Part shown: in pieces, positions 44,001 to 46,469 of the stretch
Layout of the letters: each line of letters begins with the position of its first letter
How positions within the stretch are numbered: the first letter of the stretch is position 1
Notes under the pieces: generated by a model
Databases searched by the model: none
What the model was told of the DNA's origin: nothing
The model's input: only the letters and a program-made list of their open reading frames with translations
Translations under genes and position numbers: made by a program
Source of the DNA: an uncultured Verrucomicrobiae bacterium
GTDB taxonomy: Bacteria; Verrucomicrobiota; Verrucomicrobiia; Chthoniobacterales; UBA10450
Reading direction: 5' to 3'
Assembly (NCBI GenBank): GCA_963772365.1
Contig: CAVYXA010000001.1
Span: 736,001 to 800,000, forward strand
DNA length: 64,000 nt

Positions 44001-46469
44001 AATGCCGCCGAATTCGTCCTTGTTTTGCACATCGACACGCGTGATCCGGTTGTTGGCGTCGCGGTAAATATTCGTGAGAAAACGTCCCGGCGTCCCCGCA
44101 TCGCGCGAAGTAACCTGCACGACTTGATTCAATTGATTAACGAAAAATTGCGTATCGTTCCCGCGAGGATCGACAATCTGTGTGACGCATCCGACTGAAT
44201 TGTGCGTGAACGCGGTCGTCAGATTTAATCCGCCGGCATCGCGAATGAACGATTGCAGATATCCATTTTGCGCGCCGCTGGTGTAATAATGCCACTCATC
44301 GCGTTCGCGATGACCGGTATTGTTCTGCGGCCAGACGATCGCAGTGAGCTGACCGTTCGCGTTGTGTTCGATGTCGGTCGTCACTCCATCCGGCCTGGTT
44401 ACGCTCATTGCGTTTCCGTTCGCATCGCGCGCGCATGTCCAAGTGAACCCGCGCGCGTCGGTACGCGCGACGCACCAACCAACTAATGGGTCACCGGTCT
44501 CAAAGATTCCGCCACCGACTTCCCCAAGGCTGGCCAACTCAGGGATATGGTCGTAGGGAGCCTCGTCTTCCTCCATCCGGATCTTGTGGGCTGCGCCCGA
44601 GCCGTCGCCAAATCCGACATGATAATAGATCCCCGTGTAGTCTATTCCGTCGCCGTTCAAATCACCGTATATAGGTCCGGCCTTACATTTGATGCCATCA
44701 CCTAATTTTAAGTAGTCTTCGACTCTGCATTGCAGGCGGCTGGAGAAGTCGAAGTCCGATTCGCGATATTGGACGCAGTAGTGGCTTGATGAGACGTCCT
44801 CGTCGATGTAGTCCACCATGTTGCACGCGTTTACGGCCTGAATGTAAGGTCCAGGGTCGCCGTTACCGTTGAAGAACGTTTTCTCGAAGCCGAAGTTGAA
44901 CTGCGGCGCGAGCGGTGTCCTCTCGCCGGTTCCGAAGCCGGATGCGTATTCGAAGTGTTGCACAAGCGGCGCGCCGCTGACTGGTAATTGCCGATGCGTC
45001 CGTAAATTTCCGCGTTCGCGCGGATTCGTATTTGGATCGAGATCACGCTGATAAACCATTTCGACACCATTCCCGCGCGGAAATGTCACTCTACTCGGCA
45101 GCGAGTCGCGGTTCCATTCGATTGTTGTTTCGAAAAACGCCGGATCGGTCGGGCGCACGGGATTCATCGGGCGGTTTGAGCTCTCGGTCACCGGAACTCC
45201 TGGTGTCGATCTTCCGGTGAAGCGCCGCAAATCAATCAGCCGATTTTTCGAATCAAACAGTGATTCATGGACGTTGCCGATCGCATCATTCACGATCGTC
45301 TTTGTCGCCGCGTTGAACCGGCTCGTCGGACTCGTCCTGGCCAGATACGTGAAGATCTTCGTCTCGTTCGCGGTGCCGACGATTTCACTGGCCACTCGGT
45401 CGTAAAGAAAACTAGTCGCTGCCGCCGTCGTTGTATAAACGGCTTGAAACCATGGCACGTTGTTTCCGTCTTTCGCGGTCAGCAGATTGTGATCTCGCCC
45501 ACCTCCAAGTCCGGTGCTGTAGGTAAACTGCGCCGTTTTTCCCGAGGGAAAATCGTTACCGATCGGCGTGCCGGTAACCGCTTGTGACCGGACAAGAACG
45601 AGATCGCCCACGTCTCCGATGCCAGGAGTCGGGCTGGTGAGATGTTGATATTGAATCGTACGGCCCGCGAAATCCTGAACAGCCTGAATCCGATTCGCGC
45701 CATCGTAGCTGATTTGAAACGGCCGATTCAGGCTGTCGATGATCAGGAACAACCGGCCCGCGCCGTCGTATTGAAACTGAATCTGGTTGGAATTGCGATC
45801 GATGATCTTGTCGATCTTGCCCGATGTCGGCGAACCGTTGAGCGACTTGAAGATCCATCTCGTCTTATCGGCAAATTCCAACGTGAAAACCTTTTCGGAA
45901 AGCGTGCCGCGCCGGAAGAGTTCGTCGGTAGAATATGATCCGTCCGATTGAAGAAAGTAAGTATCGATCCGGTTCTGCCCGTCTTGGACAGTGACGTTCG
46001 GCCCACTCAGCGCCGCGCGAATGTTGTAGGAAAAATCCCAGTTCACGCCCATCGCCGTGTCCAATCCGATTTTCGAACGATAGGTTCGGCCCCAAACCAG
46101 ATCGAGACCGCGTCCCGAAATAACAAGATCAAGGTACTCAACGAACAATTCGCCAGTGGCTTCGTTGACTCTGGGAACGCCGAAGAGCGGCTGAAGCTTG
46201 TTTACGGCGTCGAGCATTGTGAAAAATGGTTTATCCGAGTAGCGAGGGACAATGTCGTTGAAGTCGAAATCGCCCTGCACGGGCCACTGATCCTCAAAAA
46301 GAAAGCTGCCCAGATGGACCCTTTGCGAATTCACAGCCGGCGCAGTCGGTGGAGATTCCTGATCATTGCCGCCGACCGCACTTTGAAGGAGCGCAACGAT
46401 TGCGGCGAATGTAACAATCCATCGTCGCCACGCGTTGGAGCGAGCAAATCCGCGAAGACAAGTTTTCAT
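41028..46469 (-). CDS. Secreted RHS/YD-repeat protein with mosaic insertions and no C-terminal toxin
   Basis: Signal peptide, DUF6531-like segment (VNEATGEL...RTYRS...MGVNW), many YD repeats, and a degenerate RHS core (YEYEDFG...[17 protein letters not shown]). Confidence 0.92.
   Translation of the reverse strand: [1813 protein letters not shown]

Follow-up and report, generated by a model that had tools for sequence, protein, structure and literature searches.

The 64,000-nucleotide window analyzed here (contig CAVYXA010000001.1 of assembly GCA_963772365.1, positions 736,001 to 800,000) comes from an uncultured bacterium, a soil verrucomicrobium of Chthoniobacterales, and contains on its minus strand an open reading frame (ORF) for an RHS/YD-repeat protein. 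At a site termed site 1, where most members of the family have a short loop, this protein carries an insert of about 151 residues. The insert is a mosaic of blocks, and one of the blocks contains a motif that originates from VgrG, the spike protein of type VI systems. The features of the gene are collected in Table 1; all positions are those of the window, and residue numbers (aa) are those of the ORF.

The ORF has many YD/RHS repeats and an N-terminal DUF6531 domain, as expected of a shell protein. The repeats are matched by PF05593 (E 2.7e-46, in 11 stretches) and by TIGR01643 (E 6.4e-31), and solved Rhs proteins match the ORF with E values down to 1.1e-20. PF03527 was not reported in the Pfam scan of the protein. 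The database entry for the identical protein (P0002) has 1813 aa, a length counted from aa 43, and the true start is therefore likely the ATG at 46469. Judged by eye, the N terminus that follows this ATG resembles a signal peptide.

Site 1 lies between YASGFG, which begins at aa 550 (window 44948), and RTDARG, which begins at aa 711 (window 44465). This interval agrees with the stretch 44480–44920 in which an earlier reading of the letters alone (the original prediction) had placed a mosaic insert, and all peptide strings quoted there are present in the minus-strand translation of 41028–46595. That the stretch is an insert is borne out by the family, since the loop measures 12–14 residues in 20 of the 43 aligned members, 10–14 in most of the family, and has a median of 11 residues among 112 members. 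It often reads GGCCG.NFV. In this ancestral form (P0015, P0020, P0028, and others) the loop has two adjacent cysteines and a near-constant length.

A search with aa 330–930 returned 164 relatives. In 10 close homologues the flanks are conserved up to ...GFGT.E and again from TDARG... onward, and the 34–160 residues between them are wholly different in content. Three of the 10 (L011–L013, from metagenome-assembled genomes labelled Chthoniobacterales or Verrucomicrobiae) have the same pmi and yggS neighbors and are thus positional orthologues.

The insert did not find a homologue as a unit. Used as a query among 838 candidates in a word-index search, it found its own protein only, and a HMMER search against 1.84 billion representatives gave three weak matches, none with E≤1e-10. 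The best hit in 40 related genomes was a 31-residue match to a VgrG ORF, and a metagenome scan for close relatives yielded three distant matches (33% identity), none of which has the insert. The ESM Atlas yielded no more than leads, with a best score of 0.90 to an unnamed cluster and 0.88 to a Phage_GPD cluster. An AlphaFold2 model based on a 43-sequence alignment has a predicted local distance difference test score (pLDDT) of about 90 for the shell flanks and below 50 for aa 557–706, which show no secondary structure. The lack of a homologue as a unit, the low pLDDT, and the unrelated sequences in the orthologues together argue against a single conserved domain. The outcome that the original prediction had named as contradicting it, an unbroken domain shared by orthologues and confidently folded, was not found. 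There are no flanking direct or inverted repeats and no hairpin pointing to a mobile element at the insert, no Rfam families on either strand of 40900–46700, and no opposite-strand ORFs of at least 80 codons inside the insert.

Table 1. Coordinates of the RHS gene, its insert blocks, and its other variable regions. CAI, codon adaptation index; GC3, GC content at third codon positions.
Feature	Window position	Residues (aa)	Strand	Remarks
RHS/YD-repeat protein ORF	41028..46595		minus	1855 codons, TTG start
LruC-domain fragment, N-terminal variable region	46230..46307	97-122	minus	profile positions 2-27 of 243; 30.4 bits, cut-off 36
DUF6531 domain ahead of YD-repeat shell	45957..46169	143-213	minus	PF20148, E 4.1e-11
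Site-1 insert	44472..44930	556-706/708	minus	~151 residues; expands a loop of 10-14 residues in most family members
Block A	44823..44930	556-591	minus	CAI 0.68
Block B	44733..44822	592-621	minus	9-residue NMVDYIDED plus VgrG gp27 motif copy; CAI 0.80, GC3 0.83
VgrG gp27 motif copy 1, in Block B	44733-44780	606-621	minus	16-25 residues
Block C	44646..44732	622-650	minus	deviant composition; two cysteines; calcium-loop-like GDLNGDG
Block D	44472..44645	651-708	minus	GIYY and RMEED; CAI 0.70
Site-2 insert	41385..41684	1638-1737	minus	family median/usual loop 14 residues; CAI 0.630
VgrG gp27 motif copy 2, in site-2 insert	41454..41519	1693-1714	minus	Pfam, VgrG profile
Site 3, third expanded loop	41118..41171	1809-1826	minus	family median 6 residues

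Block structure of the site-1 insert

The mosaic is supported by three independent lines of evidence, namely motifs, composition, and changes in natural populations. The insert as a whole has a CAI of 0.647, compared with a minimum of 0.702 in the 115 other 151-codon windows of the gene, and when the usage of the neighboring genes is taken as the reference the value is 0.687 compared with a minimum of 0.753. TTA makes up 3 of the 151 insert codons versus 7 of 1600, and ATA 2 of 151 versus 0 of 1600, so that the atypical codons noticed earlier are confirmed by count. GC and GC3 of the whole insert fall inside the range of the gene. The CAI of the site-2 insert is also under the minimum of 0.702, and it is again below all other windows with the usage of the neighboring genes as reference.

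By block, the VgrG-containing Block B is ordinary in its codon usage, and the outlier is Block C, which has a GC of 0.448, a GC3 of 0.448, and a CAI of 0.587 versus a minimum of 0.654 in 294 control windows. It contains the TTA AAA TTA and ATA codons that had been flagged in the original prediction, and both of its borders are breakpoints in populations. The start of Block A, FNFGF, may be a leftover of the ancestral short loop, judging from a comparison with the loops of basal members.

Contigs from soil metagenomes of four studies contain parts of the insert at 85–98% identity, joined to the flanks, which excludes an assembly artifact. An insertion of 9 bases follows 44733, the border between Blocks B and C, in all four runs, and one of 6 bases follows 44847 in a single run. 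In contig X6, Block D (44474–44646) is swapped for 86 other letters, a net difference of 29 codons, with the joint running from 44473 to 44647; in contig X1, loose ends are seen at both of these positions. All of these changes are in frame, and the insertion at 44733 as well as both ends of 44474–44646 fall on block borders.

The strong VgrG match of the original prediction is confirmed by Pfam, by NCBIfam, and by a VgrG profile that we built from 15 VgrG genes of the order. With this profile the insert scores 23.9 bits, whereas the maximum among 2000 shuffles is 5.5. Pfam Phage_GPD matches the whole protein with 31.3 bits (cut-off 30.1) by way of two short stretches, and it is the sole Pfam family reported on the two inserts alone, even at E≤10. 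TIGR03361 aligns aa 597–622 to its profile positions 128–153 of 513. The full gp27-like domain, which takes up about 300–500 profile positions, is absent; the matches cover positions 116–135 of 305 (Pfam) and 128–153 of 513 (TIGR03361), each twice, and the spike-protein score of the RHS protein is 34.6 bits versus a cut-off of 186. In a VgrG from a genome of the same order, 15 of the 16 residues are equal (first Y to L), with 12 consecutive residues in common. A word-index search of shorter proteins with Block B gave no candidates, which in view of these 12 residues we attribute to the index and not to a lack of such proteins.

The copy at site 2 differs from the copy in Block B at synonymous sites, including a serine encoded by TCG in one and by AGC in the other. 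At the DNA level the two copies are no more alike than either is to ordinary VgrG genes, and they are therefore not the result of a recent duplication; the likeness of the insert to VgrG is one of protein sequence. A weak VgrG-like match (5–7 bits; independent E value about 0.01–0.03) is also found inside the conserved shell at 42703–42744 on the minus strand (aa 1297–1310) and recurs in P0006–P0011; it may be a chance likeness of YD-type sequence.

The peptide NMVDYIDED in front of the motif is not part of VgrG proteins in 400 genomes of the phylum, where the matches begin at query residue 14. It had been labelled GspK/PilX-like, and no such match was reported by Pfam with the insert alone at E≤10; the peptide recurs only in the RHS homologue P0014. 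In this distant family member, which lies outside the clade of expanded proteins described below, the composite NMVDYIDED...CVQYRE is again situated at site 1, which points to block exchange between RHS genes or to a common donor.

Several of the shorter labels in the original prediction found no support. In the same Pfam scan of the insert at E≤10, neither PKD (FGDGS) nor CarA (FFNGNGDP) was reported. YGDLNGDG is a motif of the calcium-loop type, but no curated model for a dockerin or FG-GAP repeat was reported at E≤10, a scan in which the filters drop weak matches. For the supposed Hcp N terminus, a profile of 17 Hcp proteins gives no domain in the insert; its best score of -5.5 bits is equalled by 1196 of 2000 shuffles. 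The proposed echoes of VgrG out of order stood in part. RMEED fits the second half of the VgrG block and is expected by chance with a frequency of 7e-5 (200,000 shuffles). GIYY has a chance frequency of 0.010 and lies within aa 636–659, a stretch that matches the repeat unit of the tandem-repeat protein P0003 (GDWNGDGIDTIGLY...) with E 1.5e-6 over 9 stretches. Its origin is thus ambiguous, and from its sequence context GIYY may belong to a calcium-loop-type repeat instead of VgrG.

VgrG and Hcp pieces in the RHS family

Three points go beyond the original prediction, namely the second copy of the VgrG motif, a genome without a type VI system, and a pattern that extends over the family. A tree built from shell columns unites the expanded proteins in a single clade, which comprises 45 of the 117 tips and has a support of 99. 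The site-2 insert has the islands GEMCDD, RDY, and R[ST]MD.G..W in common with the site-2 inserts of P0006 and P0012, and is thus partly homologous by descent.

Profiles for VgrG, Hcp, and the sheath protein TssC were run on 120 homologues and on 61 RHS ORFs from genome loci, with a threshold of at least 8 bits for a piece. VgrG pieces occur in 12 of the 120 and 3 of the 61 members, and Hcp pieces in 6 and 4, respectively. No TssC piece was found in either set, the best score being -1.3 bits. Of the 32 pieces, 30 lie in variable regions: the N-terminal region, site 1, and the C-terminal tail have 9 each and site 2 has 3, with 2 pieces elsewhere. The pieces come from a limited number of donor positions, namely the gp27 motif, the stretch around RVKVQFHWDREGK..SSCW, EGDPDRPIVIGSVYN, the beta-helix repeats, and the N- and C-terminal strands of Hcp. 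They measure 16–110 residues and do not follow their native order; they are found in cargo or at internal loops. One type of piece can occupy different variable sites in different proteins, and the same VgrG motif is found with different borders in at least 12 proteins.

Individual homologues illustrate the range. The site-1 insert of P0041 contains an Hcp fragment of Bacteroidetes type, and in P0011 and P0012 an Hcp N-terminal piece directly follows the signal peptide. P0091 and P0101 have short loops and a 345-residue cargo (aa 1633–1977 and 1630–1976, respectively) composed of an Hcp N-part, VgrG 149–179, VgrG 385–496, and an Hcp C-part. At the corresponding cargo position, L014 has a near-complete Hcp (114 bits). 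An AlphaFold2 model of the P0101 cargo is poor, with a mean pLDDT of 51, and only its OB-fold part reaches 70–87. Aspzincin_M35, Colicin_D, and PT-HINT are among the toxin domains at the C terminus of basal family members.

Fragments of other families were seen in variable regions or cargo of P0042, P0065, P0089, P0112, P0104, and P0069. They comprise HU (positions 49–89 of 90), the cold-shock domain (36–64 of 66), EF-Tu domain 3, RRM, and the catalytic-loop region of a protein kinase. In the protein from the window, the LruC-domain fragment stands alone at aa 97–122; at the same alignment position the positional orthologues have a VgrG piece.

The pieces keep their reading frame. In 62 RHS genes (352 kb), 15 pieces of at least 8 bits were found in the RHS frame and none in the other five frames, where the best score was 2.8 bits. 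This result serves as a control for chance, and it argues against capture that is blind to frame. The VgrG piece common to the three positional orthologues is under purifying selection: its proportion of nonsynonymous differences (pN) is 0.14–0.19 at a synonymous proportion (pS) of 0.55–0.82. The pN is 0.14–0.18 in the shell and 0.27–0.35 in the 60 columns on either side of the piece. The site-1 insert itself is present in no orthologue.

The genome from which the window is taken (3.35 Mb, 90% complete) contains no VgrG beyond the two fragments, no Hcp, and no TssC. The genomes of the three orthologues have no TssC, and VgrG-like matches occur in them only inside RHS ORFs. Among 15 genomes of the same family none has a TssC match, compared with 23 of 151 in the order. 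One genome of the same family (G021) has two adjacent Hcp-family matches over the cut-off at C1:158421–159375, in ORFs of 257 and 393 residues, and no TssC match.

The RHS gene is present in one copy in its genome and is surrounded by housekeeping genes, with obg directly downstream in convergent orientation and the gene for mannose-6-phosphate isomerase upstream in divergent orientation; a YggS-like gene, nrdR, and a hybrid sensor kinase are further neighbors. The stop codon of the RHS gene is at 41028 and obg ends at 40952, which leaves no space for an immunity gene, and none is found directly downstream. The tail behind the last position of the family profile consists of 15 residues, compared with a family median of 201, so this copy lacks a toxin cargo. 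Pfam did not report a C-terminal toxin domain in aa 1742–1855; the single match there is Imm51 at chance level (E 0.17). Without cargo and without an immunity gene, this RHS copy is probably not a toxin.

Origin of the insert and alternative explanations

We consider it probable that the site-1 insert is a lineage-specific hypervariable expansion of a short loop in a Sec-exported DUF6531-RHS shell protein, a patchwork of reused peptide modules and not a domain. It is made up of no fewer than four blocks that differ in origin and that have been assembled and reassembled through insertions, deletions, and exchanges of blocks, all in frame. Among them is a copy of the most conserved motif of the VgrG spike, with a second copy placed in another expanded loop. 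In one RHS clade, three loops and the N-terminal region have expanded, and together with the C-terminal cargo region these contain short VgrG and Hcp modules, along with fragments from a few other conserved families. The data show the mosaic, the VgrG origin of the motif, the turnover among orthologues and strains, the retention of the native frame, and the purifying selection on one piece in orthologues. The modules may derive from illegitimate recombination in which the type VI genes belonged either to other bacteria or to an ancestor equipped with them. They may have been retained for the value of the peptides to the RHS protein, be it as structural staples or as a surface for binding or mimicry.

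Several points weigh against this explanation. The insert is a singleton, and selection was measured on a different piece in other orthologues. Contig X2 has 13 listed base differences, and the 48-nucleotide VgrG motif is free of them where about 2.5 would be expected by our estimate; this absence is only suggestive. The low pLDDT of the insert may reflect no more than missing homologues in the alignment. Two separate captures would account equally well for the synonymous differences between the motif copies, and with a genome that is 90% complete a type VI system could lie on the missing DNA. Conserved motifs are detected more readily, and donor segments of lower conservation would be missed, so that the seeming confinement to the most conserved motifs is in part an effect of detection. 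The pieces could be staples, an exposed surface for binding or mimicry, filler of the lumen, or relics, and we choose none of these roles.

As a minority view, the loops may simply be tolerant and the inserts neutral filler, the VgrG and Hcp bits being decaying relics, without a role of their own, of DNA captured from type VI genes in the former neighborhood of an ancestral rhs gene. Such a history would agree with the complete turnover of the insert among orthologues, the lack of a predicted fold, the atypical codon usage, the drift of the second half of the VgrG block at site 2, and the fragments of unrelated families (HU, cold-shock, EF-Tu domain 3, kinase, and LruC). It does not explain why 15 of 15 pieces are in their native frame and none in the other five, or why one piece has a shell-like pN that is lower than that of its flanks in three orthologues. 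Relics would also not be expected to place the same VgrG motif at different sites with different borders in at least 12 proteins, nor to leave out TssC, which is equally conserved and never a donor.

Among 112 members, the summed length of the inserts and the length of the C-terminal tail are anticorrelated (Spearman -0.72). The protein from the window has 273 inserted residues and its 15-residue tail, whereas in basal members the inserts sum to about 30 residues, the tail is about 230 residues long, and all three loops are of constant length. These figures would fit a clade that lost its C-terminal toxin cargo and in which loops pointing into the cocoon grew to fill an empty lumen, so that their sequence is hardly relevant. 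We regard this as improbable. Inside the expanded clade of 45 tips the correlation is weak (-0.25, p 0.10, n=44), and the anticorrelation in the whole family is therefore essentially one evolutionary transition. Several members combine large inserts with cargo of more than 200 residues, the inward orientation of the loops is an assumption, and the frame retention and the selection on pieces are left unexplained.

A more daring possibility is that peptides copied from the type VI parts which competitors expel are presented on the secreted RHS protein, or reach their target as its cargo in relatives, and that they serve as decoys, binding surfaces, or poison subunits in spike and tube assembly. 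Mimicry, however, does not follow from short linear motifs that stem from the buried parts of a fold. Unrelated families donate fragments as well, the protein from the window has no cargo, and the model of the P0101 cargo is poor. We therefore hold this explanation to be a long shot, even though the donors are the expelled parts VgrG and Hcp and never the sheath, the four host genomes examined have no type VI system, the Hcp piece of P0011 and P0012 is right behind the signal peptide, and the cargo of P0091 and P0101 is an Hcp/VgrG chimera behind a cleavage-type motif. In its broadest form, which seems to us just as speculative, soil Verrucomicrobia without a type VI system would keep an evolving library of spike and tube modules, copied from armed neighbors, as decoys or poison subunits.

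An assembly chimera, or short matches expected by chance in a large protein, would be in keeping with the length of most of the matches first proposed (5–10 residues) and with the four that lack support, and is scarcely credible for the insert and the VgrG motif, being refuted by the insert parts joined to flanks in four independent soil studies, the open frame through the insert, a VgrG score beyond all 2000 shuffles, and the absence of pieces from five control frames of 62 genes.

If the pieces do act on the type VI machines of competitors, this would be a new kind of defense, a counter-measure at the protein level that is made from the attacker's own parts. If they are only building blocks, the family is an example from nature in which new protein segments have been put together out of fragments of unrelated conserved proteins, and the steps can still be followed among strains. 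In either case the fragments affect annotation, as they already cause wrong names; one 1526-residue homologue is called an HU family DNA-binding protein by its source.

Comparison with known systems

The protein has the same architecture as the Sec-exported RHS polymorphic toxins of the DUF6531-RHS type surveyed in PMC3482391, with a signal peptide, DUF6531, and a long YD-repeat shell. It departs from these toxins in its tail of 15 residues and in lacking both a toxin domain and an immunity gene. Known RHS polymorphic toxin systems vary in their C-terminal cargo, whereas the variation here is in three internal loops and the N-terminal region. A description of VgrG or Hcp fragments inside RHS loops was not found in the literature searched, which includes passages of PMC3482391.

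Type VI effectors that are fused to VgrG or Hcp, such as the solved VgrG-Rhs fusion 8qja, also combine VgrG or Hcp with RHS repeats in one polypeptide. In these effectors the N-terminal VgrG or Hcp domain is complete, and they function as part of a type VI system. In contrast, the pieces observed here measure 16–110 residues and occur in signal-peptide proteins, in genomes without VgrG, Hcp, and TssC genes.

A sharply bounded variable segment in a conserved large toxin scaffold, exchanged among strains, is also known from the receptor-binding region of CdiA and the hypervariable region of TcC. The variable segments of CdiA and TcC are folded domains or cargo with known roles, whereas the site-1 insert has no predicted fold and is made of fragments from unrelated proteins. 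Variation in RHS proteins usually concerns the C-terminal toxin; here it is situated in internal loops, and its raw material can still be recognized as coming from two expelled parts of the type VI system.

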